Shown here: positions 5,263 to 31,306 of the stretch, in pieces
How the letters are laid out: every line of letters begins with the position of its first letter
Position numbering within the stretch: the stretch's first letter is position 1
Assembly: GCA_045542775.1 (NCBI GenBank)
Contig: JAZQLR010000023.1
Coordinates: 1 to 33,756, forward strand
Length of the DNA stretch: 33,756 nt
From: Clostridia bacterium
GTDB lineage: Bacteria; Bacillota; Clostridia; Monoglobales; Monoglobaceae
Reading direction: 5' to 3'
Notes under the pieces: generated by a model
What the model saw: only the letters and a program-made list of their open reading frames with translations
Databases searched by the model: none
Told to the model about the DNA's origin: nothing
Made by a program: the position numbers and the translations under genes

Positions 5263-6253
5263 ATCTCTTTTTGCCTCTGTTATTTTTTTCGCTTATCCGT
5301 TCACGCTCAATGGTCTTTTTCTCGTATGCCTTAACAATCTGCTGTACCAGCGGATGCCTTACAACATCCTTTTCGCTTAGGTACATAAATTCAATACCCT
5401 CAACACCCTTGAGAACAATCTCTGCATCACGCAGACCCGACTTTTTGTTGGAGGGCAAATCTATCTGGGTTATGTCACCCGTAACAACTATCTTTGACGA
5501 AAATCCCATACGGGTGAGGAACATCTTCATCTGCTCGGGCGTGGTGTTCTGCGCTTCGTCTAAGATAATAAACGCATCGTCAAGAGTTCTGCCGCGCATA
5601 TAGGCAAGGGGTGCAACCTCGATAAGTCCCCGTTCAATATTCTTGTGGAACGATTCGCCGCCCAGCATATCGCCAAGGGCATCATAGAGCGGTCTTAAAT
5701 ACGGGTCAACCTTGTCCTGCATATCCCCCGGCAGAAAGCCCAACGACTCGCCGGCCTCAACCGCAGGTCGGGTGAGAATAATCTTGTTAACCTCTTTATT
5801 TTTAAACGCCTTAACCGCCATAGCCACCGCAAGATAGGTTTTACCCGTTCCGGCAGGGCCTATACCAAAGACGATGGGGTTCTTCTCGATAGCGGTGATA
5901 TAGCTCCGCTGACCAAGAGTCTTTGCACGAATGGGCATTCCCCTTGAAGTTATGCAAACGCAGTCCTGACCAAGAGTTTCAAGCTCCTTATCATTGTCCT
6001 CCTCAATCTGGGAGATTACATACCGAACCTCCTGCTCGCCAAGAGCAGTGCCGCCCCGTGCCATACCCATAAGATGCTGAATAACACGAACAGCACGGTC
6101 AACATTATCCGGCTCACCGCCAATTTTGATGTCCGAGCCACGGTTAATCACCGCAACATCGAACTCTTTCTCGATAAGTCTGATATTTTCGTCAAAGCTG
6201 CCGAAAAGGTTAATCAGAACCTCCATTTTTTCAACCTCAATGTGTCGCTCCAT
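5240..6253 (-). CDS. phoH: PhoH-family ATPase (PhoH/YbeZ-like)
   Basis: Walker A GPAGTGKTYLAVA and an N-terminal KH-like region. The track ORF extends to a GTG at 6331, but that extension runs into the family C repeat. I prefer the ATG at 6253 (MERHIEVEK...), which has aggaagga upstream. Confidence 0.9.
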   Translation of the reverse strand: MERHIEVEKMEVLINLFGSFDENIRLIEKEFDVAVINRGSDIKIGGEPDNVDRAVRVIQHLMGMARGGTALGEQEVRYVISQIEEDNDKELETLGQDCVCITSRGMPIRAKTLGQRSYITAIEKNPIVFGIGPAGTGKTYLAVAMAVKAFKNKEVNKIILTRPAVEAGESLGFLPGDMQDKVDPYLRPLYDALGDMLGGESFHKNIERGLIEVAPLAYMRGRTLDDAFIILDEAQNTTPEQMKMFLTRMGFSSKIVVTGDITQIDLPSNKKSGLRDAEIVLKGVEGIEFMYLSEKDVVRHPLVQQIVKAYEKKTIERERISEKNNRGKKRYENSDKK

Positions 6254-6322
6254 ATACGCCTTTTTCCTTCCTTTTTCATACCCCCAACTAACCTGTTTCA
6301 GCAAAACCATTGCGTTGTTTTT

Positions 6323-6383
6323 GTAGGGCACAGCCTTCAGGATGTGCCGGTTTGCCGGTTCGTCAGAAATCGCCGAACCCTAC
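6323..6383. repeat. Dispersed structured repeat, family C (three-way junction type)
   Basis: GTAGGG-GGCACAgccttcaggaTGTGCC-ggtttgcc-GGTTCGtcagaaatcgcCGAACC-CTAC. A near-identical inverted copy lies at 26632-26690. Confidence 0.8.
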
Positions 6384-6440
6384 AATAGCAAATTAAAATT
6401 GGGAGTGCTATCTCTTTTTAATTCCAAGCATAGTTTTCCA

Positions 6441-7667
6441 CTATGTATTTTCACTATCCTCATTGTAATTCAAATTTTCAATTTTGTCAATTGCAGATTG
6501 CTCCGCAATGTCCTCATAGCACAGGATTTTAACCGTTACCGTCACCGAATTTTTCTCCTCCACAAAACTCATCTCGATATCCTTAATCTCGGCTGACGGC
6601 GAAATCTCCGATTTAAGCTCCTTTTCAAGCTCTTTTTTTGCCAGATTTACCGTCTGCTCTGCTGTCCGTTTCCGTTTTTCGGGGGTGTATTCTCTGTAAT
6701 TCACCTTGCCTATAGCAAAGGGCGGAAGCTTATTCCCAAACAGGCTGTACTCCGTACGGGTTTCAGTCTTGTCAGAATATTCAAATGGCGACCCCGATTT
6801 AAAATAAAGCGGCAGTGCCTTGCCGAATGCCGAAACGGTGAATTTTGATTTTGCCTCGCCCGTATATATTTTTTCAACATATTCCAAAGGATATGTACCC
6901 GATTTCTGGTACTCGGTATCGGCGTACACCTCGCCAAAGGAATGTGCGTAGCGGATACCCTCCTTTGTGCTGTCTATCACGCCGCTGACAAGCAAATCGC
7001 CCTTTTCGACCATATCATTGACCTTTACCGTTGTCTGACCTGCCTTCACCTCCAGGAGCCTTATTATCCCGTCACGGCACGCAATCAGGTTGCACGGAAC
7101 ATCTGCGTTCTCCACCCGCTTGGTATCAAGGCGTTCACGCACCTCGATATACGCCTTTGAGCCTTTGATATTTACCCCAATCCACGCAATATCGTCAAAC
7201 GCCGTCATCATTTTATTCTGCACCGATTTCGGCTCAATTCTCCGCACCGCCGCACCACGATAAACTCCGGCGTTCTTCAGCCCCTGCTCAATCTCTGCGG
7301 CAGAGAGCCTTTCGCAGCCGATTATGTCAATCCCCATAATATGTGATGAGAGATACCACAGCACAGCAATAAATAAAAACACCCCCGAAAGCGCAAACCG
7401 CCTTTTGTGAAAACGATGGAGAAAAAACGGCAAGCCGTAGCGCCTGCAGAGCCTCACCCGTGTTCGGGTTTTGCGTGCAATGGGGCGGATTTCGCGAAAT
7501 CCCCGGATGCTTATACGGGCATCAATGGCATTTTCGCCGCGGCGTTTGACATCGCGGAGAAGTATGTTGCGATGCATACAAATGTTCAAAAACCGTTCAA
7601 GGAACATTCCCTCGGCACGGATTGTAACCGAGCCACGGATATAACCAATAATCTTTGAAATTGACAC
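6441..7667 (-). CDS. yqfD: Sporulation protein YqfD (stage IV)
   Basis: 408 aa beginning MSISKIIGYIRGSVTIRAEGMFLERFLN, with a central TM segment. Position is yqfC-yqfD-phoH as in Bacillus. Confidence 0.85.
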   Translation of the reverse strand: MSISKIIGYIRGSVTIRAEGMFLERFLNICMHRNILLRDVKRRGENAIDARISIRGFREIRPIARKTRTRVRLCRRYGLPFFLHRFHKRRFALSGVFLFIAVLWYLSSHIMGIDIIGCERLSAAEIEQGLKNAGVYRGAAVRRIEPKSVQNKMMTAFDDIAWIGVNIKGSKAYIEVRERLDTKRVENADVPCNLIACRDGIIRLLEVKAGQTTVKVNDMVEKGDLLVSGVIDSTKEGIRYAHSFGEVYADTEYQKSGTYPLEYVEKIYTGEAKSKFTVSAFGKALPLYFKSGSPFEYSDKTETRTEYSLFGNKLPPFAIGKVNYREYTPEKRKRTAEQTVNLAKKELEKELKSEISPSAEIKDIEMSFVEEKNSVTVTVKILCYEDIAEQSAIDKIENLNYNEDSENT

Positions 7668-7670
7668 CGG

Positions 7671-7985
7671 CTACACCTCCTGTCTGAATTCCACCGACGA
7701 GAATTTGCCCGTTACATACAGCATTTCCTTTGCGATGCTTTTTATTTCAAGCTCGGCGCCGCAAATTCGTATCCGGTTGGGGTTTGCCAAAAGAATTATC
7801 TCTTTTTCGGTATATTCCACTATACTTTTATAATTTTCGACCGTCAGCTCACGGTTGCCCAGCATTTCAATCCTTGCAAAGTCGAGGATTACCTCCTTTG
7901 CGGCATTCATCGACCCTGCAAGCCGCTCACGAACAGTAGTTTTTGGGGTCTCCGCTTTTTGTTTTGCTTTTTTCATATAAATCAA
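7671..7985 (-). CDS. yqfC: Sporulation protein YqfC
   Basis: Contains ...IEMLGNRELTVENYKSIVEYTEKEIIL... and sits immediately upstream of yqfD. A TTG at 7985 has GGAG 7 nt upstream; an alternative ATG is at 7976. Confidence 0.8.
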   Translation of the reverse strand: MIYMKKAKQKAETPKTTVRERLAGSMNAAKEVILDFARIEMLGNRELTVENYKSIVEYTEKEIILLANPNRIRICGAELEIKSIAKEMLYVTGKFSSVEFRQEV

Positions 7986-8059
7986 CGCCCTTCTCCTTTA
8001 AAATTATGCTTAAATACCGCCGTTAATGAATATATGTATTGTGAAAAGGAAGTGAAATA

Positions 8060-9154
8060 ATGAAAGTAAGCTTTTCAAAGGTCTTAAAGCTTGTATTTTT
8101 GCTATGCGCTCTGCATATCGCCTTGTTTTTGGTTATGTTCCCAACTGCCTGTATCGAAGTCGGGCGAACAGCGGTTAACCTTTGTTTGAATTCGGTAATC
8201 CCGTCGCTTTTTCCGTTTTTAATTTGCAGTGGAATTTTCTCGGCTACCGGTGCGGCAACCGCTTGCAGCCGATATTTATCCCCCGTTGTCAGACCTCTTT
8301 TCAAAGTGCCCGGCTGCGGTGCGGCGGCGTTTGTTCTCGGCATTGTCAGCGGCTACCCCGTTGGTGCGGCTTGTGCCGCAAACCTTTACGCCACGGGTCA
8401 ATGCACCAAAACAGAAGCCGAAAGGCTTTGCGCCTTTTGCAATAACTCCGGACCAATCTTTATTATTTCGGTAGTCGGCTGCGGTTTCTTAGGCAGTGCC
8501 GTTTTGGGGAAATACCTTTATATTTCCCACATTCTCTCCGCAATTCTCTCCGGCTTTGTTCTGAGCCTTTTTGAAAAGCAAAGCCAAAACCAAAGCTCCG
8601 CCTTGCCTCCAAAATCCGTGCCTAAACCAAAGGACGCCGTATTTATCCTTGGCGATGTAATGGACACCTCCATTTCCTCAATGCTGAAAATATGCGGTTT
8701 TGTGGTGTTCTTTTCGGTGTTTGCGGCGGCAATTCCAAAAAGCAATATCACCCCGTACCTCGCCGCAGCACTTGAAATCACCGGCGGTATAAAACAGCTT
8801 GCCGGACTTGAAATTCCCCTTGATACAAAGCTTTGCCTGATTTCGTTTTTTGCCGCATTTTCGGGAATTTCAATTATGCTTCAGGTAGGTGCAATAACCG
8901 CACCGCACCGCCTTTCGCTTATCCCCTACATTTTTGGCAAGCTGATTCAGGGCGGTTTTTCGGTGTTAATTATGAAAGCTCTTCTTTATTTCTTCCCCTT
9001 AAATCAAAGTACATTTCTGCAACAAAAAGACCCTGTCGCATTCGCGGCAGAGCCTTTAGGGAATCTCTTTTATTCACTTTCAGTTCTTGGTGCTGCACTT
9101 CTCGTTTTTGCAGCTATTATATCGATTATCAAGCTGTTAAAACGAGTGGTTTAA
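8060..9154 (+). CDS. ylbJ: Sporulation integral membrane protein YlbJ-like (nucleoside-recognition/Gate-domain membrane protein)
   Basis: Polytopic membrane protein of 364 aa. Motifs NSVIPSLFPFLICSGIF and CNNSGPIFII are typical of YlbJ. Confidence 0.75.
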   Translation: MKVSFSKVLKLVFLLCALHIALFLVMFPTACIEVGRTAVNLCLNSVIPSLFPFLICSGIFSATGAATACSRYLSPVVRPLFKVPGCGAAAFVLGIVSGYPVGAACAANLYATGQCTKTEAERLCAFCNNSGPIFIISVVGCGFLGSAVLGKYLYISHILSAILSGFVLSLFEKQSQNQSSALPPKSVPKPKDAVFILGDVMDTSISSMLKICGFVVFFSVFAAAIPKSNITPYLAAALEITGGIKQLAGLEIPLDTKLCLISFFAAFSGISIMLQVGAITAPHRLSLIPYIFGKLIQGGFSVLIMKALLYFFPLNQSTFLQQKDPVAFAAEPLGNLFYSLSVLGAALLVFAAIISIIKLLKRVV

Positions 9155-10497
9155 TATCTGGGTGGGTTGTAGTTATTCATTCTCCGCTTCTTCCTCTTGC
9201 TCTTTTTAAGAGCACGTACAAAGCCAACTATTATCAGCGTTATAAACGCCAGTACAAGGCCGAGCACGGTGTATACCACAAACTTCACCACTCGGAAACT
9301 CCACAGCCATTCAAAAAATGTCATTACAAAGCCGAAGAAATGGCGTTTTACCTCCTGAGTAGAACACAGGTTCACGCTGCCGATTTCCTTGCCGTCATAG
9401 GTAAATTTAACCTTGCCTATTACCTGACCCGAGGTGATTGGTGCATAGACCTTTTCGGGGATTTCGGTAACAAACTCTATTTTCTCGCTGTCGCCGCCCT
9501 CAGGGAAAAGTGCCTCAAGGTTTTTTTCGGCGGAAAGCAGAATATGGTCTGTTCCGTCAGCCGCCTGCTTAACCTTTACCTCGCCGAATATATCATCGCG
9601 TTTAGCAAGGGTTTTAAGGCTGAACGCCGTTAAGCCGTACTGTAAAATCTCCTTGGACTCGTTGTGCGAAATGGCAATATCCTCGGCATTGAACACTACC
9701 GAAATTACCGATTTGCCCTTATCCTCGGCAGATGACACAAGGCAGTAGCCAGCCTCGGAGGTAGAACCGGTTTTGATGCCGGTTGCCTTGTCATAGAAGT
9801 AATACGGATAACGCATCAGGGATACAAGATTGTTTGTATTTATAAAATAACGCTGGTCGGACATATTTGTTGCCGGAAGGTAGATATGCGCGCATTCCAC
9901 AATCCCCGCAAATGTCGGGTTCTGCATCGCCACTCTCGCAAGCTTTGCCATATCCTTTGCCGTGGTGTGGTGGTCCTTGTGATGCAGACCGTGGGGATTC
10001 ATAAACGAGGTGTTTTCAAGACCCAATGCCTTTGCCTTTTCGTTCATACGCATAACAAATTCTTCGGCTGTTCCGCCAATGCCCTCGGCAATCACCATTG
10101 CCGCATCGTTGCCCGAAGCAATCAGAAGTCCCTGCAGAAGTCCCTCAAGAGTCATGCTCTCGCCGACCTTGAGCGCAATACTGCTGCCGTCTATATCAAG
10201 AGAATCATACGCCGCCTGACTGAGTGTCAATGGCTGGTCGAGGCTGATTTCACCGTTCTTCACCGCATCAAGTGCCACAAGTGCCGTCATCATCTTGGTG
10301 GTGCTGGCAGGGTACATTACCTTTTCCGAGTTCTTTTCAAACAGCACATTTCCGGTGTTTGCGTCTATAAGAATAACCGCCTCCGCCGTGGGACTTGGCT
10401 TAGGAGTCGCAAAAGCCGGAACTGTCGCACCCAGCATAATTATCGCCGCAAGACACAAAACCATTGCCATGCGAGTGTATGTAATCGCCTTTTTCAT
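9151..10497 (-). CDS. D-alanyl-D-alanine carboxypeptidase (class C low-MW PBP)
   Basis: Signal peptide MKKAITYTRMAMVLCLAAIIMLGATVPAFA. SxxK (STTK), SGN and KTG boxes are present, with a C-terminal TM anchor and basic tail. The ATG at 10497 has a GGAGG RBS; the longer track ORF would overlap tsaB. Confidence 0.9.
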   Translation of the reverse strand: MKKAITYTRMAMVLCLAAIIMLGATVPAFATPKPSPTAEAVILIDANTGNVLFEKNSEKVMYPASTTKMMTALVALDAVKNGEISLDQPLTLSQAAYDSLDIDGSSIALKVGESMTLEGLLQGLLIASGNDAAMVIAEGIGGTAEEFVMRMNEKAKALGLENTSFMNPHGLHHKDHHTTAKDMAKLARVAMQNPTFAGIVECAHIYLPATNMSDQRYFINTNNLVSLMRYPYYFYDKATGIKTGSTSEAGYCLVSSAEDKGKSVISVVFNAEDIAISHNESKEILQYGLTAFSLKTLAKRDDIFGEVKVKQAADGTDHILLSAEKNLEALFPEGGDSEKIEFVTEIPEKVYAPITSGQVIGKVKFTYDGKEIGSVNLCSTQEVKRHFFGFVMTFFEWLWSFRVVKFVVYTVLGLVLAFITLIIVGFVRALKKSKRKKRRMNNYNPPRY

Positions 10498-15715: not shown

Positions 15716-15874
15716 TGCCAGATAATTTTTTAAAACGACTATACAAACATGCTTTCTTGCCTTTTGGCAAAAACGCACTGTTTTTTTACGCATGTTTGTA
15801 TGTTGTTAAAATCTTGTCTGGCGACTTGGAGCAGTGCGTTTTTCGGTGTACGGCTCTGCCGTGCACCTTTTTTA
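15716..15874 (+). ncRNA. Candidate structured RNA, family B copy 1 (stand-alone)
   Basis: P1 is GCCAGAUAA..UUUU/AAAA.UUGUCUGGC and P2 is UAUACAAACAUGC/GCAUGUUUGUAUG. There is an apical hairpin UUGCC-UUUU-GGCAA. The long-range pairing is AAAAACGCACUG/CAGUGCGUUUUU, and the terminator is GGUGUACGG-cucu-GCCGUGCACC plus U6. Confidence 0.6.
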
Positions 15875-16025: not shown

Positions 16026-16117
16026 GGAGAGGTGGTCGAGATGGTTTAAGGCGCAGCATTGGAAATGCTGTGTACGTTTATAGCGTACCGTGGGTTCGAA
16101 TCCCATCCTCTCCTCCA
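16026..16117 (+). tRNA. tRNA-Ser (anticodon GGA), class II with long variable arm, CCA encoded
   Basis: Acceptor ggagagg/cctctcc, anticodon stem-loop cagca-ttGGAaa-tgctg, variable arm tgtacgtttatagcgtaccg, T-arm gtgggTTCGAATcccat, and 3' tcca. Confidence 0.93.
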
Positions 16118-19734: not shown

Positions 19735-19772
19735 TACACGGCTTGATAAAATCACCGACTACATAAACAATA

Positions 19773-19810
19773 AAACAGACATTAGTCCTTGGGCAAATGT
19801 CTGTTTTTTC
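19773..19810 (+). terminator. Intrinsic terminator of metY
   Basis: aAACAGACATtagtccttgggcaaATGTCTGTTtttt. Confidence 0.8.
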
Positions 19811-19824
19811 TGTTCTAACCCTAT

Positions 19825-19853
19825 TTGTCATCCCGAGTGAAACGAAGAATCTT
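19825..19853 (+). repeat. Family D short repeat
   Basis: ttgtcatcccgagtgaaacgaagaatctt. Confidence 0.75.
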
Positions 19854-19931
19854 AAAGCTGTCCAAGATGCTCGACAAGCAAGACCCTTCGACAAGCTCAG
19901 GGTGACATCACGGGTGGCTTTGTATCCGGAA

Positions 19932-19960
19932 TTGTCATTCTGAACGCAGTGAAGAATCTT
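19932..19960 (+). repeat. Family D short repeat
   Basis: ttgtcattctgaacgcagtgaagaatctt. Confidence 0.8.
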
Positions 19961-19991
19961 TCTTGTCATCACGCAAAATATATAAAACACC

Positions 19992-20021
19992 TTGATTTTT
20001 TTATCAAACCTGTGGTATACT
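19992..20021 (+). promoter_or_regulatory. Sigma-A type promoter (extended -10) of family B copy 2
   Basis: TTGATT - 18 nt (ending TGg) - TATACT. Confidence 0.6.
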
Positions 20022-20027
20022 ATATTT

Positions 20028-20191
20028 GCCAAATCAAATTAATACTTGCTTTATGTGATCAGCTTTTTTGTCTTTCGGCAAAAATGTACTGCTTATTTAA
20101 GCTTGATTGTGTAAAGCATTAGGTTTAATTTGGTTTGGCGACTGAGGGCAGTACATTTTTCGGTGTACGGTTCTGCCGTACACCTTTTTTT
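20028..20191 (+). ncRNA. Candidate structured RNA, family B copy 2 (stand-alone)
   Basis: P1 is GCCAAAUCAAAUUAA/UUAAUUUGGUUUGGC (15 bp) and P2 is UUGCUUUAUGUGAUCAGCUU/AAGCUUGAUUGUGUAAAGCA. The long-range pairing is AAAAAUGUACUG/CAGUACAUUUUU. The terminator is GGUGUACGG-uucu-GCCGUACACC plus U7. Confidence 0.6.
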
Positions 20192-20230
20192 GTGCTTCTC
20201 TCGGAGGTTACCACACACTTGCATCCGGCA

Positions 20231-20266
20231 AAACACCCCGACCATATTGGTCGGGGTGTTTGCCTT
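20231..20266. terminator. Bidirectional hairpin terminator (end of the minus-strand peptidase operon)
   Basis: aaACACCCCGACCatatTGGTCGGGGTGTttgcc, with T-rich sequence on both strands. Confidence 0.7.
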
Positions 20267-20292
20267 TCAATTTTAAACAGCCACTTTCCCTA

Positions 20293-20447
20293 GGGGATAG
20301 GAAAAATAGGTTCAGAATGAATAAACTGAGCCAAAGCTATGCTTTGGGTTACCCGACGGCGTACTGTGGTGTACGCCGAGCGGCGAAGTTTATTTATAGC
20401 AAAAGGCACAGTTTGCCTTTTGCGCTCTGGACTATTTTAACATCCCC
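20293..20447 (-). repeat. Structured 3'-UTR element, family A (copy A1, overlaps the peptidase stop codon)
   Basis: On the plus strand: GGGGATAGGAAAAATAG...gagCCAAAGCtatGCTTTGGgttaCCCGAcGGCGTACtgtggtGTACGCCGAGCGGcgaag...CTATTTTAACATCCCC. It carries an extra internal hairpin aaaaggcacagtttgcctttt. Confidence 0.75.
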
Positions 20448-20911
20448 TTTATTTTTCTCTTAATATTACCAGCTTTGCCACGCAGTCTTACCCAAATTCT
20501 CCAAATTGGTAGGACAACTTTTACGTACCGAGCGTAGCTTTTGCCACTGCAATCAAGCACCTTGTTTTTCCGGCTGACCGCCGTTAAAATACCGATTATC
20601 CATTCGGGCTTTACGCCGTGTTCAAGAATTCTCTGATTGTCGCCGCATAGAATATAGCCGTTTTTATCCTCGCCCACAATTCGGTGCAGAACAAACTGAC
20701 CGTCGGGTCGGCGATAGAAAATCACCTCGCCCACCTGAGGGGTTTTATCCAATGCTCCAACCGTAACGCTGTCCTTACCCTGACGGATAAGAGGCCGCAT
20801 ACTTATGCCGTGGGGACGAAATGTAACGCTGCCGCCCAGCCTTAGCTTTTCCTCAATAATCGGGAACAGCTCTTCAAGCCGGACTCCCTTTTTGCCTTGC
20901 AAACTACTCAT
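20432..20911 (-). CDS. Soluble signal-peptidase-like serine peptidase (S24/S26 superfamily, SipW/S26B-like Ser-His-Asp boxes)
   Basis: 159 aa with boxes HGISMRPL (nucleophile Ser), FVLHRIVG (His where LepB/LexA types have Lys) and CGDNQ. There is no N-terminal TM segment. The start overlaps the PqqD stop by 8 nt. Confidence 0.75.
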   Translation of the reverse strand: MSSLQGKKGVRLEELFPIIEEKLRLGGSVTFRPHGISMRPLIRQGKDSVTVGALDKTPQVGEVIFYRRPDGQFVLHRIVGEDKNGYILCGDNQRILEHGVKPEWIIGILTAVSRKNKVLDCSGKSYARYVKVVLPIWRIWVRLRGKAGNIKRKIKGMLK

Positions 20912-21170
20912 CTATCAGATTAGCCTCTTTCATTTTATTGATAAATGCCTTAACATCTCTAAGCGCAATATCCTCGGGAGCATCATATTCCGTAAGCAAT
21001 GCCGAAACAAGCTCTGCCTCGGTTGCACCGCCCTCCAGAGTCTTCCACAAAAACGCACCGCTCTCGTTAAGATTAATCATTCCGTTGAAGTCAATCGCAG
21101 CACTTCCAACAGGCACAACAACATTCTGACCTGCCACGCTGCGAAGCATAAATCCTGCCTTGATTTTCAT
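20904..21170 (-). CDS. PqqD-family protein (RiPP recognition element-type peptide chaperone)
   Basis: 88 aa containing ...MINLNESGAFLWKTLEGGATEAELVSALLTEYDAPEDIALRDVKAFINKMKEANLI, which matches the PqqD pattern (LNetg..iW..l.g..t..el...l...y.v.......Dv..fl..l...gli). RBS is GGAGAGG. Confidence 0.8.
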   Translation of the reverse strand: MKIKAGFMLRSVAGQNVVVPVGSAAIDFNGMINLNESGAFLWKTLEGGATEAELVSALLTEYDAPEDIALRDVKAFINKMKEANLIDE

Positions 21171-21195
21171 AAAATCTAAATCCTCTCCGGGCTTC

Positions 21196-21927
21196 TTATC
21201 TGTTCATTCCATTATATGCGGTATACGCCGCATCATCGTCCATATTACAGCCCATTCTGTATACCGTTGTTTGTTGCAAAAGCCGGTCAAGCAAATCAAG
21301 GAGCTTTGACATATTTCTGTTATCCACCGGACGAATTGTCTGATTGAGTATCCCAAACGCCGCATCCTTTGCCAAAATCGGCTCTATCCAGTTTTCCGCT
21401 GACCGTTCAAGGAAGCATATCCCCTGTAAGGGAACACCAATATTCTTATTCTGGTCGGTCTTGCCGCTCCACGGCGTGCCGTAAACCGTAACCTTGCCGT
21501 CCTTAATACGGATAACCGGCTTGTCATCGTTGAGAATATATGTGTTGTCCTCGCCAAACACCTTGCGCCAAAGCGTGGTGTGGGTTGACTTGCCCGTTCC
21601 GCTGGGAGCAGAAAAAAGGTATGCCTTGTTCTCATACACAACCGCAGATGCGTGGAGCATAAATCCGTCAAACTCTAAAAGCTTGCTGCAGAACTGCTCG
21701 CCCGTCCACATATACTCACATTCCAGAGTGGAAAGATGCGGAGCAAATTTCTGCTTTGCCAGAAGGAACTCGTCATCAAGCCCCACCACAATTTCGGGCG
21801 TGCCATCAAATTCGCAAAGGTACTCCTTTGCCTGCTTTTCAATTATTCCGCCTGAGCGGAGAATCATTCCCACATTAACATCGGCAATGGAATACTTACG
21901 CTTGCTGATACCGTCTGCAGAATTCAT
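21196..21927 (-). CDS. HPr-kinase-like P-loop protein (HprK-related kinase family)
   Basis: 243 aa containing GFMLHASAVVYENKAYLFSAPSGTGKSTHTTLW...LNDDKPVIRIKDGKVTVYGTPWSGK. This resembles the HprK/P C-terminal catalytic fold as found in HprK-related kinases of peptide-modification clusters. The start ATG overlaps the SLH gene stop (TAATG). Confidence 0.7.
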   Translation of the reverse strand: MNSADGISKRKYSIADVNVGMILRSGGIIEKQAKEYLCEFDGTPEIVVGLDDEFLLAKQKFAPHLSTLECEYMWTGEQFCSKLLEFDGFMLHASAVVYENKAYLFSAPSGTGKSTHTTLWRKVFGEDNTYILNDDKPVIRIKDGKVTVYGTPWSGKTDQNKNIGVPLQGICFLERSAENWIEPILAKDAAFGILNQTIRPVDNRNMSKLLDLLDRLLQQTTVYRMGCNMDDDAAYTAYNGMNR

Positions 21928-22886
21928 TATTCAGCCGCTCCTGGAAGCATAATGATTGTAGGAATTTCAAAGCTGCTGCCATCGCAGGAGTAAATCTTGC
22001 TTATATTAGCAACATCTCCCGAAACAACAATACCGGGAACAACAGTTGCAATCTCAGTAAATACACCATCAACCGAAACCTTTGTTCCTGCTCTTACAAC
22101 CAGTTTATTGAGGATTTCGGCATTCTTCACTTCAATGTTGCCTTCACCTACACCATCACCGATAACAACCATTTTCTCGGTCACTATATTATTAAGATTC
22201 ACGCCCGGAACTCTTATCATAACATTGCCATCGGTGGGAATTTCTGTCTCGGTATCATCAATATAGTACTTGATGAGTCTGTCCATAACAACCGCAAACT
22301 CTGCACGGGAAATGTTGTTGAGGGGATTGATGTAACCGTCATTGCCTGCAACATAGCCGCTTGCGACAATTGCAGCAACGCCGTTCTTTGCCCAATCATC
22401 AACCTTGTCGCCATCCTTGAACTGGTCAAGAATTGTTGTGTCAACATTGAATGTTGCAAGACCGAAAACTCTTGAAAGAACAAGGAATGCTTCCTGTCTT
22501 GTGATGGGGTTGTTGGGGTTAAGCTTATTGTCAGAACCGGTGAATGCGCCCATTGCAACAGCCTTTGCCATTGACGCATAGAACCAGTCGTCAGGATTAA
22601 CATCTGTAAAACCGGTAATTACCGCTTCCTTAGTTGCGCCGCAGGCACGAGCCATAATTGTTGCCATTTCGGCACGGGTCATATTATCTGACGGCTTGAT
22701 ATATCCACCGCTGCCGCCCAAAAGTCCGTTTTCAACTGCTGCGGTAAGTGCCGCTGTTGACCAGTCGTCGGGCATATCCTTGAAGTCAGCTGCAAATGCA
22801 ACTGTTCCGAGTGAAAGCATAAATACCAAAACCAATGCGAGTATCTTTTTCATAATAAAAATCTTCCTTTCTTTATGTGAATTCAT
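21927..22886 (-). CDS. Secreted S-layer-homology (SLH) domain protein with uncharacterised beta-rich C-terminal domain
   Basis: Signal peptide ...MKKILALVLVFMLSLGTVAFA/ADF. There are three SLH repeats (FKDMPDDWSTAALTAAVENGLL; FTDVNPDDWFYASMAKAVAMGAF; FKDGDKVDDWAKNGVAAIVASGYV). The ATG at 22886 has GGAG 7 nt upstream and lies just downstream of the promoter; an alternative ATG is at 22853. The track start at 22976 lies upstream of the promoter. Confidence 0.85.
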   Translation of the reverse strand: MNSHKERKIFIMKKILALVLVFMLSLGTVAFAADFKDMPDDWSTAALTAAVENGLLGGSGGYIKPSDNMTRAEMATIMARACGATKEAVITGFTDVNPDDWFYASMAKAVAMGAFTGSDNKLNPNNPITRQEAFLVLSRVFGLATFNVDTTILDQFKDGDKVDDWAKNGVAAIVASGYVAGNDGYINPLNNISRAEFAVVMDRLIKYYIDDTETEIPTDGNVMIRVPGVNLNNIVTEKMVVIGDGVGEGNIEVKNAEILNKLVVRAGTKVSVDGVFTEIATVVPGIVVSGDVANISKIYSCDGSSFEIPTIIMLPGAAE

Positions 22887-22907
22887 AGATAACTCCAGTA
22901 TATATTG

Positions 22908-22936
22908 ATTATACTGTATTTTACGAGGTTTTTCAA
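22908..22936 (-). promoter_or_regulatory. Consensus sigma-A promoter of the SLH/kinase/PqqD/peptidase operon
   Basis: Minus strand reads TTGAAA - 17 nt - TATAAT. Confidence 0.65.
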
Positions 22937-22984
22937 TCCTCTTTTTGAAAAATAATAAATTTGTAAGTTTGTACAAAAAATAAC

Positions 22985-23287: not shown

Positions 23288-23316
23288 AAGAGGCTGTTTA
23301 AACAGCCTCTTTTTTC
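23288..23316. terminator. Intrinsic terminator of the DUF1540 gene
   Basis: aAGAGGCTGTTTAAACAGCCTCTtttttc. Confidence 0.85.
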
Positions 23317-23334
23317 TTATATAACGAAATCCAA

Positions 23335-23476
23335 GGGATAGTAAAAATAGATTCAGAATGAATAAACCGAGCCAAAGCTTGTGCTTTGGGTTACCCGAAG
23401 CTGTACTAGGTGTACAGCGAGCGGCGAGGTTTATTTATAGCAAATTTTTTTGCGGTCTGGACTATTTTTACATCCC
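23335..23476 (-). repeat. Structured 3'-UTR element, family A (copy A2, directly after the rseP stop)
   Basis: On the plus strand: GGGATAGTAAAAATAG...gagCCAAAGCttgtGCTTTGGgttaCCCGAaGCTGTACtaggtGTACAGCGAGCGGcgagg...CTATTTTTACATCCC. The GTAC hairpin shows compensatory changes relative to A1. Confidence 0.75.
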
Positions 23477-23481
23477 TCTTT

Positions 23482-24558
23482 TTAAATTCTTGAAATTAGC
23501 CGCATTATATCATTCCATGTCGCAAACACCATAACACCCAGCAAAAGAACCAAACCGATAAAGTGAACAATACCCTCTTTTTCGGGCGGAATGGGTTTTC
23601 TGCGGATTGCCTCAATAATCACAAAGAATATTCTGCCGCCGTCAAGCGCCGGAATGGGCAAAAGATTCATAATTCCTATATTAACCGAAATAAATGACGC
23701 AAGCGACAAAAGCGCAAGGAGACCTGCAAGCATTCCCTTACCCTCTGGCGCAGAGCTTGCCGCATCGTTCACCGCCGAATTCATCGCATCAACCACGCCG
23801 ACAGGTCCGGACATCTCGCCGACACCTACCTCGCCGCTTATCAGCATCCCGAGCGATACAAACACAACCTTTCCCATCCACACTGTCTGGTAAAAGGATT
23901 CCCGTATTACGCTCACTGCACCAGCCTTTTGCATGGTTGTGGTGATGCCCAGCAGATACGCGGGGCTTCCGTCGGTGTACTTTGCCTCAATCGGTTTAAA
24001 GGGAAAGCTCAGCTTTTCGCCGTCACGCTTTACCGTAACCGTACACTCGCCACCATCGTATCTTTGCATTGCAAAGTCAATATCACGCTTGATATTAATT
24101 TTGCTATCGTTTATGGCAACAATTCTGTCACCGGGTTGCAGCTCGCCGTAAAGTGCCGATTGCTCAATGACAGTATCCACGGTGGTTGTGGGAATTCCGC
24201 TGCCCTGATAGAACACCGAAACAAAGATTGTAAAAATCAAAAAGCCTAAGATTATATTCATCGCCGAGCCGGCAGCAAGGATTATAAGCTTCTGCCACCA
24301 CGGCTTTGCGGAGAATGAGCCGGCATCGTCGGATTGTTCGTCCTCGCCCTCCATACTGCAAAAACCGCCCACGGGGATTGCCCTTATGGAGTACTTGGTA
24401 TCACCTTTTCCCTGCCGTGAATAAATCTGAGGACCCATACCGATAGCAAACTCGTGAACCTTAACACGAAACAGCCGTGCCGTGAGAAAGTGACCCAGCT
24501 CGTGAACAAATATTATAAGCGAGAATAAAAGAATTGCAAATACTATTGTCCAAATCAT
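23482..24558 (-). CDS. rseP: RIP (site-2) zinc metalloprotease RseP/RasP
   Basis: HELGH zinc motif in TM1, a central PDZ region, and NLLPIPALDGG. Confidence 0.93.
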   Translation of the reverse strand: MIWTIVFAILLFSLIIFVHELGHFLTARLFRVKVHEFAIGMGPQIYSRQGKGDTKYSIRAIPVGGFCSMEGEDEQSDDAGSFSAKPWWQKLIILAAGSAMNIILGFLIFTIFVSVFYQGSGIPTTTVDTVIEQSALYGELQPGDRIVAINDSKINIKRDIDFAMQRYDGGECTVTVKRDGEKLSFPFKPIEAKYTDGSPAYLLGITTTMQKAGAVSVIRESFYQTVWMGKVVFVSLGMLISGEVGVGEMSGPVGVVDAMNSAVNDAASSAPEGKGMLAGLLALLSLASFISVNIGIMNLLPIPALDGGRIFFVIIEAIRRKPIPPEKEGIVHFIGLVLLLGVMVFATWNDIMRLISRI

Positions 24559-30710: not shown

Positions 30711-30735
30711 GGGTTGGGAAAGGGCCTATTTCCAA

Positions 30736-30811
30736 AGATTCTTCACTTCGTTCAGAATGACACTTCATTCTGATTCACTTATTGTCATTCTGAGGCATAG
30801 CCGAAGAATCT
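30736..30811. repeat. Inverted pair of family D repeats (potential long hairpin)
   Basis: agattcttcacttcgttcagaatgaca (30736-30762) is the reverse complement type of attgtcattctgaggcatagccgaagaatct (30781-30811). Confidence 0.75.
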
Positions 30812-30914
30812 AAAAAAATTATCACAATTTGAGATAACTCATTGACAAGTATTTAGACAAGAATTATAATAGCTTTGCGCTGCTCCGATTGTCGCCAGCA
30901 AATCCATAGGCACA

Positions 30915-30945: not shown

Positions 30946-30956
30946 TGCTTTTAAGT

Positions 30957-31306
30957 TATGCGGCAGACCTGTAAGCCGAGTTCTGTCTTTTAAGACGGTC
31001 ATCTATCTAAACCGCATATCACTATGCGGCTCAAGCCACCTTCTCGAAAGATGCCGGGCCAGCTTAGCCTTTCATTCAGGTGTTGCTCCGGATGGGGTTT
31101 ACAGCAAGGGTCAGTCGCCAGACCCCGAGTGAGCTCTTACCTCACTTTTCCACCCTTACCTGCAAAAAATACAGGCGGTATATTTCTGTTGCACTTTCCT
31201 TAAAGTTGCCTTCACAAGGTGTTACCTTGCACCCTGCCCTGTGGAGCTCGGACTTTCCTCACGCACAGGATTACTCCTTGTACCCGCGACCGTCCAGTCT
31301 GCCGAG
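30957..31306 (-). ncRNA. rnpB: RNase P RNA, bacterial type A
   Basis: Minus strand contains GAGGAAAGTCCGAGCTCCACAGGGCAG, AGTGCAACAGAAATATACCGCC, GGTAAGGGTGGAAAAGTGAGGTAAGAGCTCAC, GTAAACCCCATCCGGAGCAA and ACAGAACTCGGCTTACAGGTCTGCCG. P1 pairs CGGCAGAC.. at both ends. Boundaries are good to about 10 nt. Confidence 0.92.

Follow-up and report, generated by a model that had tools for sequence, protein, structure and literature searches.

The minus-strand operon at 20432-22936 of contig JAZQLR010000023.1, a 33.7-kb stretch of Clostridial DNA that is referred to here as the window, encodes an SLH (S-layer homology) protein, a kinase, a PqqD-type recognition element for peptides that are ribosomally synthesized and modified post-translationally (RRE and RiPP, respectively) and a SipW-type peptidase. 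It appears to be a pared-down module, coupled to an SLH protein, from a Clostridial group that is sister to the linear polyphosphorylated peptide (LPP) pathway, and its substrate is most likely a precursor peptide encoded in trans; we place the probability of this reading at about 0.55. Popov et al. (Nat Commun 2026;17:6633; PMC13381572) described LPP as a RiPP family of Bacilli, which they reached through a SipW-like signal peptidase in atypical lasso loci of that class. The core set comprises the signal peptidase (SpI), PqqD, an HprK-like kinase, NTP_transf_5 and an MsbA-type ABC transporter, and the precursors carry the leader motif YxxPxVLxHQxIxFETxxS (PMC13381572). When lppA-K-B-S-D-N of Paenibacillus alginolyticus was expressed in B. 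subtilis, LppK added up to four phosphates to Ser3 of the core and LppS cut off the leader after T-1 in a reaction that required LppB; the S29A, H68A and D93A mutants of LppS were inactive, and its N-terminal helix docks onto the sheet formed by the RRE and the leader (PMC13381572). The earlier note on this DNA, made from the sequence alone, knew of no described function for the gene combination. That statement is superseded, because a description and tests of the module of kinase, RRE and SipW-like peptidase appeared in 2026, and the pathway that the same note proposed, in which a trans-encoded peptide is recognized, phosphorylated and cleaved, is essentially what experiments on the homologous LPP system have shown (PMC13381572).

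Four tightly packed open reading frames (ORFs) make up the operon. They encode the SLH protein (21927..22853, 308 residues, with the ATG at 22853 taken as the real start of a maximal ORF at 21927..22976), the ScmC/HprK-like kinase (21196..21927, 243 residues), the PqqD RRE (20904..21170, 88 residues) and the SipW-type peptidase (20432..20911, 159 residues), all on the minus strand. The SLH and kinase genes have 1 nt in common (TAATG), the kinase and PqqD genes are separated by a 25-nt gap that contains GGAGAGG, and the PqqD and peptidase genes overlap by 8 nt. A sigma-A-type promoter, TTGAAA-17-TATAAT, lies 5' of the SLH gene on the same strand (22908..22936); with 11 of 12 matches, it outscores every other promoter-like site between 19700 and 23600. 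The gene packing, each junction and the promoter read exactly as they had in the earlier note. Many species have this set of genes between differing flanking genes, and the block is therefore not a chance adjacency, the outcome against which the note had proposed a gene-neighbourhood comparison. Directly 3' of the peptidase stop codon, a 10-bp hairpin was read from the sequence (20399..20423, minus strand), inside a copy of a dispersed repeat that is described below. It is a possible terminator, with no T-run, and was not flagged by the terminator scan.

Local Pfam searches gave matches for the PqqD and SLH proteins and none for the kinase or the peptidase. The top NCBIfam match of the kinase is TIGR04249 (ScmC, E = 1.5e-7, below the cutoff of the model); it also matches TIGR04352 (HprK-related kinase A), again below threshold, and the precomputed annotation of its homologues is Pfam PF27840, 'ScmC'. 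The protein contains the motifs SGTGKST (Walker A), NDDKP and GTPWSGK, and the Walker A motif is invariant in an alignment of 18 homologues. A sequence search against the Protein Data Bank (PDB) returned nothing useful for the kinase, and a fold search was used instead. The AlphaFold2 model (mean predicted local distance difference test (pLDDT) score of 92.8 and predicted TM-score (pTM) of 0.89) has as its top Foldseek matches ATP-dependent phosphoenolpyruvate carboxykinases (PEPCK) and HPr kinase/phosphorylases (HprK/P). The two enzyme groups have one common P-loop kinase fold, and the 243-residue protein is predicted from its sequence and model to be an LppK-like P-loop kinase of the PEPCK/HprK fold.

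The PqqD protein matches Pfam PqqD with an E of 2.5e-20. Compared with the sequences in the PDB it gave weak and similar matches to TbiB1 (0.005), LppB (9x8z, 0.0076), TfuB1 and PbaB1, so that LppB is no nearer in sequence than are the B1 proteins of lasso systems. The residues of LppB that contact the leader are nevertheless present: Asn33, Tyr60, Asp70 and Phe74 of LppB correspond to Asn35, Tyr62, Asp72 and Phe76 of the window protein. In LppB these residues hold the leader's Tyr and Pro in place and separate two pockets from each other (PMC13381572). They are kept equally in loci of the SLH type and in loci with an adjacent precursor gene.

The peptidase has TIGR02228 (archaeal-type signal peptidase I) as its top NCBIfam match (7e-7, again below the cutoff) and a weak match to the signal peptidase I structure 4ME8. 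The boxes GISMRP, LHRIVG and GDNQ, which had been assigned a Ser-His-Asp arrangement in a protein with no N-terminal transmembrane (TM) segment, were borne out by conservation: Ser37, His76 and Asp91 are invariant in 22 homologues, as are the family motifs G-x-S-M-x-P, H-R and G-D-N-Q, in the arrangement found in SipW/Sec11-type S26B enzymes. In an hhalign comparison, the family profile aligned with LppS over 120 columns with a probability of 98.7% and an E of 3e-16; the catalytic Ser, His and Asp coincide in this alignment, as does the N-terminal helix. The first 35 residues of the window protein (MSSLQGKKGVRLEELFPIIEEKLRLGG) are polar and helical, contain no membrane anchor, and align with α1, the docking helix of LppS, and the C terminus is basic and amphipathic. 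The protein is 41% identical to the Ruminococcus SpI SCH01704.1, which is part of the dataset of the LPP paper. The profile searches, the fold match and the LppS alignment thus agree with the assignment of the four products in the earlier note as SLH protein, HprK-like kinase, PqqD-RRE and SipW-like peptidase. The models behind the labels used by the LPP authors in their Supplementary Data 2 are 'HprK kinase' for TIGR04249, TIGR04352 or TIGR04355, 'SpI' for TIGR02228 and 'NTP transferase' for NTP_transf_5 (PMC13381572), and the top matches of the window kinase and peptidase are among them.

These properties of the peptidase bear on a different explanation of the operon, in which the enzyme would be a signal peptidase of the SipW-like type, dedicated to the SLH protein of its own operon, and the kinase and RRE would be unrelated to it or regulatory. 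Such an arrangement would account for the S26B/SipW-type motifs and the TIGR02228 match of a peptidase encoded in the same operon as a secreted protein with a signal peptide, and it has a precedent, known from general background, in the tapA-sipW-tasA operon of Bacillus subtilis, where sipW encodes the dedicated signal peptidase for tasA and tapA. We regard it as very improbable. The peptidase has no N-terminal TM anchor and its N terminus aligns instead with the LppS helix that docks on a cytoplasmic RRE; it occurs together with PqqD and the kinase even where an SLH protein is missing from the locus, and eight loci retain the SLH protein, kinase and PqqD genes without it. The bona fide SipW enzymes also fall in a different similarity cluster (PMC13381572).

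Clustered at 90%, the relatives of the kinase number more than 7,000. Counted with one genome per species, there are at least about 600 kinase loci, nearly all in Clostridia among the matches listed; the nearest relative among them, in a metagenome-assembled genome (MAG) of Oscillospiraceae, has a kinase with 93% identity. We analysed 87 loci, namely the window, 6 exact look-ups and 80 loci from the species scan. Within 4 kb of the kinase gene there is a PqqD gene in 68 of the 87 loci, a peptidase gene in 60, an SLH protein gene in 30, an ABC exporter gene in 21 and an NTP_transf_5 gene in 12. The fullest form is that of Acetivibrio cellulolyticus (L005), in which the sequence of genes, small ORF-kinase-PqqD-peptidase-ABC-NTP_transf_5, is the lppAKBSDN order. 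The small ORF of this locus, MKNKKHYEAPEIEIQQFEVEDIIASSG..., defines a precursor family with the leader YxxPEIEIxxFxxEDIIxxS, and a member of this family adjoins the kinase gene in 16 of the 87 loci. The P, E, E, F and S positions are invariant, and the invariant Ser is 16 residues past the Pro of YxxP, as compared with 15 for the phosphorylated Ser3 of LppA. There is no model for these peptides in NCBIfam or Pfam. A degenerate DNA pattern for the leader identified 30 metagenome contigs, all 30 of which encode precursors; most of these adjoin a kinase gene, with the B, S, D and N genes nearby. The LPP authors placed the Clostridial SpI homologues in clusters 4 and 9 of their sequence similarity network (including Dehalobacter, Anaerocolumna and Ruminococcus), for which the RREs are labelled 'others' and the precursors 'ND', and the main text of their paper mentions neither Clostridia nor SLH proteins (PMC13381572).

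The precursor genes of the Clostridial group are accompanied by genes for large secreted proteins. For 44 of 49 precursors the ORF directly upstream encodes a large protein, with a signal peptide in at least 25 cases; these are large, Sec-secreted proteins with Big_2 or Flg_new repeats or with no known domain. A secreted partner protein is therefore a general feature of the Clostridial group, and in loci that contain the enzymes this part may be played by the SLH anchor. No homology was detected between the C-terminal module of the SLH protein and the secreted proteins upstream of precursors. The pairing of a secreted protein with a following precursor was observed in L074, L042, L078, L026, L021, L017, L005, L015, L062 and L086, and also at the orphan precursors of L089 and L098 and in most of L087-L116. 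Several of the precursor-linked secreted proteins have a common C-terminal region, ...AEDAKN[YC]..F..VTI.R....

The searches for the missing parts of the pathway covered the 33.7 kb of the window only. In all six reading frames no precursor ORF was found with a regular expression, a Clostridial leader hidden Markov model (HMM) applied in two rounds or a leader HMM of Bacilli LPP, and the idea of a hidden precursor in the window was dropped on this basis. Homologues of the MsbA-like ABC exporter (LppD) and of the NTP_transf_5 protein (LppN) were absent from the window at E <= 1e-4. The earlier note had listed a precursor, a lasso cyclase, a B2 protease, a radical SAM enzyme and an exporter as missing, and this list was confirmed. 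Among loci of the SLH type, the only conserved small ORFs are PqqD and shadow ORFs. With genes for a precursor, an exporter and an NTP-transferase all missing from the window, the module most likely acts on a substrate encoded in trans. Two findings are consistent with this: the Tyr/Pro pocket of the RRE, as judged from its residues, is kept equally in SLH-type loci, and precursors elsewhere can sit apart from the kinase, PqqD and peptidase genes. In L073 the precursor is 7.6 kb from the kinase gene, in L089 and L098 none of the three genes lies within 3-10 kb of it, and some LPP precursors of Bacilli were themselves recorded as 'elsewhere in the genome' (PMC13381572).

Several points weigh against the proposal of an LPP-type module with a substrate in trans. 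There is no precursor within the 33.7-kb window and there is no exporter, even though the product would need to leave the cell. The likeness of the kinase to LppK comes from its HMM group and fold and not from an alignment with LppK, and the identity between the peptidase and LppS is about 23%. RREs of the Clostridial type are classed by the LPP authors as 'others', not as LPP. Finally, the subgroup of loci that has SLH, kinase and PqqD genes and no peptidase gene fits leader cleavage poorly, and the TAATG coupling together with the recurring SLH-kinase pair suggests a link between these two proteins that is more direct than a module acting in trans would call for.

The SLH protein begins MKKILALV... 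and has a Sec signal peptide that ends ...VAFA|ADF. Three SLH domains (Pfam SLH, E = 3.9e-31) are followed by a post-SLH 'stalk' of ~110 residues and a short tail, DGSSFEIPTIIMLPGAAE. The C-terminal region of ~110 residues had been thought uncharacterized, and a word-indexed protein search with it was uninformative, with only 2 matches. An exhaustive search changed this picture, for the same module occurs in 425 representative proteins, nearly all of which have it at residues ~190-300, directly past the SLH triplet, in much longer proteins; it is a common module of hundreds of larger wall proteins. Set beside these proteins, that of the window is thus a "headless" anchor and stalk with no cargo domain. 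In 26 of the 87 loci an SLH protein of ~300-350 residues is encoded immediately upstream of the kinase, either in the same direction, often with overlapping genes, or divergently. In a rough neighbour-joining tree these loci fall in at least five kinase clades that are interleaved with clades of the A-K-B-S-D-N type, and the genes that flank the SLH-kinase-PqqD(-peptidase) loci differ between groups, so the association is not simply inherited synteny. Loci L025, L029, L043, L051, L054 and L067, which include MAGs of Ornithomonoglobus, have a divergent SLH gene and then the kinase, PqqD and dihydrofolate reductase genes with no peptidase. L007, a member of the clade of the window, keeps an LppD-like ABC exporter gene (6007-7680) 1.4 kb upstream of its SLH gene.

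The coupling of the two genes also allows the SLH protein itself to be the substrate, so that a full-length protein would replace the precursor. The kinase and RRE, perhaps joined by the peptidase, would modify it while it is still inside the cell, for instance by phosphorylation of its C-terminal tail. The TAATG overlap, the retention of SLH, kinase and PqqD genes in loci without peptidase, and the position of the SLH gene, which in the 26 loci with an SLH gene beside the kinase gene, spread over several kinase clades, occupies the place of the precursor in an lppAKBS-type order, are all in keeping with this idea, as is the structure of the protein as an anchor and stalk. In the window protein and its closest relatives, the tail has the form S-x-F-x-x-P-x-[IL]-[IL] (SSFEIPTII; FEFPTL; FSAPLI) and is immediately preceded by a conserved Ser; this F-x-x-P motif is, however, limited to one close clade. 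In four other SLH partners (L041, 8959-9984; L056, 8832-9977; L068, 8999-9979; L079, 5665-6867) the tail is replaced by a low-complexity linker rich in Gly, Ser and Pro that ends GIEDGGE[LFI], and a similar sequence (YGIEDGEE, in YGIEDGEENDEE) is found in the core of the separate precursor of L041 (8739-8864). The same locus argues in the opposite direction as well, in that it holds a precursor and an SLH protein as separate products. With the leader HMMs of Clostridia and of Bacilli alike, no leader-like segment was detected in any SLH ORF at E values up to 10-50, and the Sec signal peptide of the protein is a normal one. An AlphaFold2 model of its C-terminal part, built from 3 sequences, has a pLDDT of 56, from which the accessibility of the tail is not readable, and was not used. 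On balance modification of the SLH protein itself is unlikely, although clearly less so than a role of the peptidase as its signal peptidase.

It is also hardly probable that the block is a decaying, functionless remnant of a fuller LPP-type or lasso-type cluster. The missing precursor, exporter and NTP-transferase genes would be explained by decay, the exporter retained in L007 would then be a part that has survived there, and the peptidase slot of relative L004 is occupied by a paralogue. In that locus the kinase is 80% identical to that of the window and the peptidase (9070-9489) only 32% identical (BLASTP E = 1e-19), which suggests replacement by a divergent paralogue. Against decay, the catalytic and binding residues in the window are all intact and the genes have a consensus promoter and tight coupling. 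The reduced architecture with an SLH gene is kept down to ~45-50% kinase identity. In comparison with L013, the ratios of nonsynonymous to synonymous substitution (dN/dS) are 0.12 for the SLH, 0.07 for the kinase, 0.17 for the PqqD and 0.14 for the peptidase gene; all four genes are under purifying selection.

With a precursor encoded in trans as the preferred substrate, the enzymology of the window module can be proposed by homology with fair confidence. By analogy with LppB, the PqqD RRE would bind the YxxP motif of a precursor leader as an added β-strand. The ScmC/HprK-like kinase, as a homologue of LppK, would transfer one or more phosphates to the conserved Ser ~15-16 residues past the Pro of this motif. 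The SipW-like peptidase, with its Ser-His-Asp residues, would dock on the RRE-leader complex by its N-terminal helix and cut off the leader, as LppS does. We infer that the substrate would be a precursor of the YxxPEIEI type elsewhere in the genome, probably adjoining the gene of a large secreted protein, as it does in related loci, and that the SLH protein, a co-selected partner, could for example hold or receive the anionic product at the cell wall. What points to these steps in the window itself is homology, the intact catalytic and binding residues and the recurring architecture, whereas the biochemistry is that of the homologues from Bacilli. A broader and rather tentative conjecture is that gut Clostridia recruited an LPP-type module of kinase, RRE and, in some cases, peptidase to a cargo-less SLH anchor, which may be phosphorylated or processed itself or may serve as a docking site that displays a polyphosphorylated peptide. 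Either version would give a wall-tethered polyanionic peptide system, in parallel with the pairing of precursors with large secreted proteins.

Core genes border the operon on both sides, according to the annotation of the syntenic relatives L001 and L004, with an rseP-type M50 protease gene, dxr, cdsA, uppS, frr and pyrH on one flank and a gene for a pyridoxal phosphate-dependent Cys/Met enzyme on the other. The DUF1540 protein, which had been put forward as a possible target of modification, accompanies the kinase in the closest clade only; in close relatives a GH36 or AsnA gene lies between the DUF1540 and SLH genes, and DUF1540 was ruled out as a partner of the system. Elsewhere in the window there are genes for the class A RNase P RNA (30956-31305, minus strand, 278 bits) and for tRNA-Ser (GGA) (16026-16117, plus strand).

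A dispersed intergenic repeat of ~160-200 bp with several internal hairpins occurs at 20272-20476 and 23297-23506 and, inverted and in part, at 1452-1546. The first two copies bracket the operon and DUF1540 block, 3041 bp apart, and overlap the final codons of the peptidase gene and of rseP. The same repeat is present in relatives (L001, 15183-15351; L012, 796-1059; L013, 8392-8607), and no Rfam family matches it at the gathering threshold. It looks like a miniature inverted-repeat transposable element or a repetitive extragenic palindromic element of the lineage. A reading of the two ~200-bp direct repeats as an att site or insertion signature was rejected because the repeat is dispersed, with further copies at 1452-1546 and in L001, L012 and L013. 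The 700-bp gap at 19735-20431, between the convergent metY-like and peptidase genes, is a patchwork of other dispersed repeats. These include the terminator-like hairpin D3 (20127-20190, similar to 15810-15873), I3 (19929-19961, similar to 30734-30766) and element D9, TTGTCATTCTGAGG...GAAGAATC; patchwork copies are also found at 1403-1437 and 30782-30816. Tandem repeats of 72-81 nt, families D1 and D2, occupy positions 2-238 at the 5' end of the first gene of the window.

LPP peptides were first described in 2026, in Bacilli, and roles in capsules or biofilms have been speculated (PMC13381572). The window reveals a much larger LPP sister group, so far unanalysed, among the Clostridia of gut and rumen. 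There the module is linked in a systematic way to proteins that are secreted or anchored in the wall, either because the precursor gene follows that of a large Sec-secreted protein or, where no precursor adjoins, because an SLH anchor is coupled to the kinase, and this points to a function at the cell surface. Material for probing the purpose of polyphosphorylated peptides is thereby at hand, in the form of an operon of four genes, a defined family of precursors and a candidate partner protein.

Among the known systems with related components, the SynChlorMet cassette (TIGR04248-04251) consists of ScmC, ScmD and the two radical SAM/SPASM proteins ScmE and ScmF. The window kinase belongs to Pfam ScmC, with TIGR04249 as its top NCBIfam match, and the PqqD protein weakly matches ScmD (TIGR04248). 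The scores are nevertheless far below the cutoffs (31 bits against 125 for ScmC and 24 bits against 100 for ScmD), and no radical SAM/SPASM genes are found in the window. The tapA-sipW-tasA operon likewise combines an S26B Ser-His peptidase with a secreted protein, but the window peptidase is unanchored and tied to a cytoplasmic RRE and a kinase, and it occurs in the absence of SLH proteins too. A closer resemblance is to the phosphorylated lasso clusters of the paeninodin type in Bacillota, which have the gene set A, B1, B2, C, D, kinase and nucleotidyltransferase. Both have a discrete PqqD RRE for a [Y/W]xxP leader and an HprK-like kinase, which in the lasso clusters phosphorylates a Ser of the precursor, and the NTP_transf_5 protein and ABC exporter are also found in relatives of the window. 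The window and related loci differ in lacking both a macrolactam cyclase and a B2 protease of the transglutaminase-like type; neither an Asn-synthetase-like cyclase (C) nor B2 appears among the operon genes or the called genes in the loci of close relatives. Where the lasso clusters have the cysteine protease, there is here a serine peptidase of the SipW-like type, so that the product would be linear.

The LPP clusters combine the same three protein families, and the kinase-RRE-peptidase order of the window is that of lppK-lppB-lppS. In both cases the peptidase is of the SipW type with Ser, His and Asp, has no N-terminal TM segment and has a hydrophobic or basic C terminus, and the RRE has the pocket for a Tyr-type YxxP leader. 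The fuller Clostridial relatives extend the likeness, since they also carry the precursor, the ABC exporter and NTP_transf_5 in the same order. The window itself differs in that lppA, lppD and lppN are absent and that the gene of an SLH wall anchor is coupled to that of the kinase. The leaders differ as well (YxxPEIEIxxFxxEDIIxxS in Clostridia as compared with YxxPxVLxHQxIxFETxxS in Bacilli), and the Clostridial precursor genes are found not in capsule loci but downstream of genes for large secreted proteins, with the exception of L041. In that locus the precursor-SLH-kinase set comes after Wzz- and CpsD-like capsule genes (7034-8647), echoing the capsule context of LPP in Bacilli. With these likenesses and differences, the window is a member of a Clostridial sister group of LPP that was listed in the 2026 paper but not analysed there.

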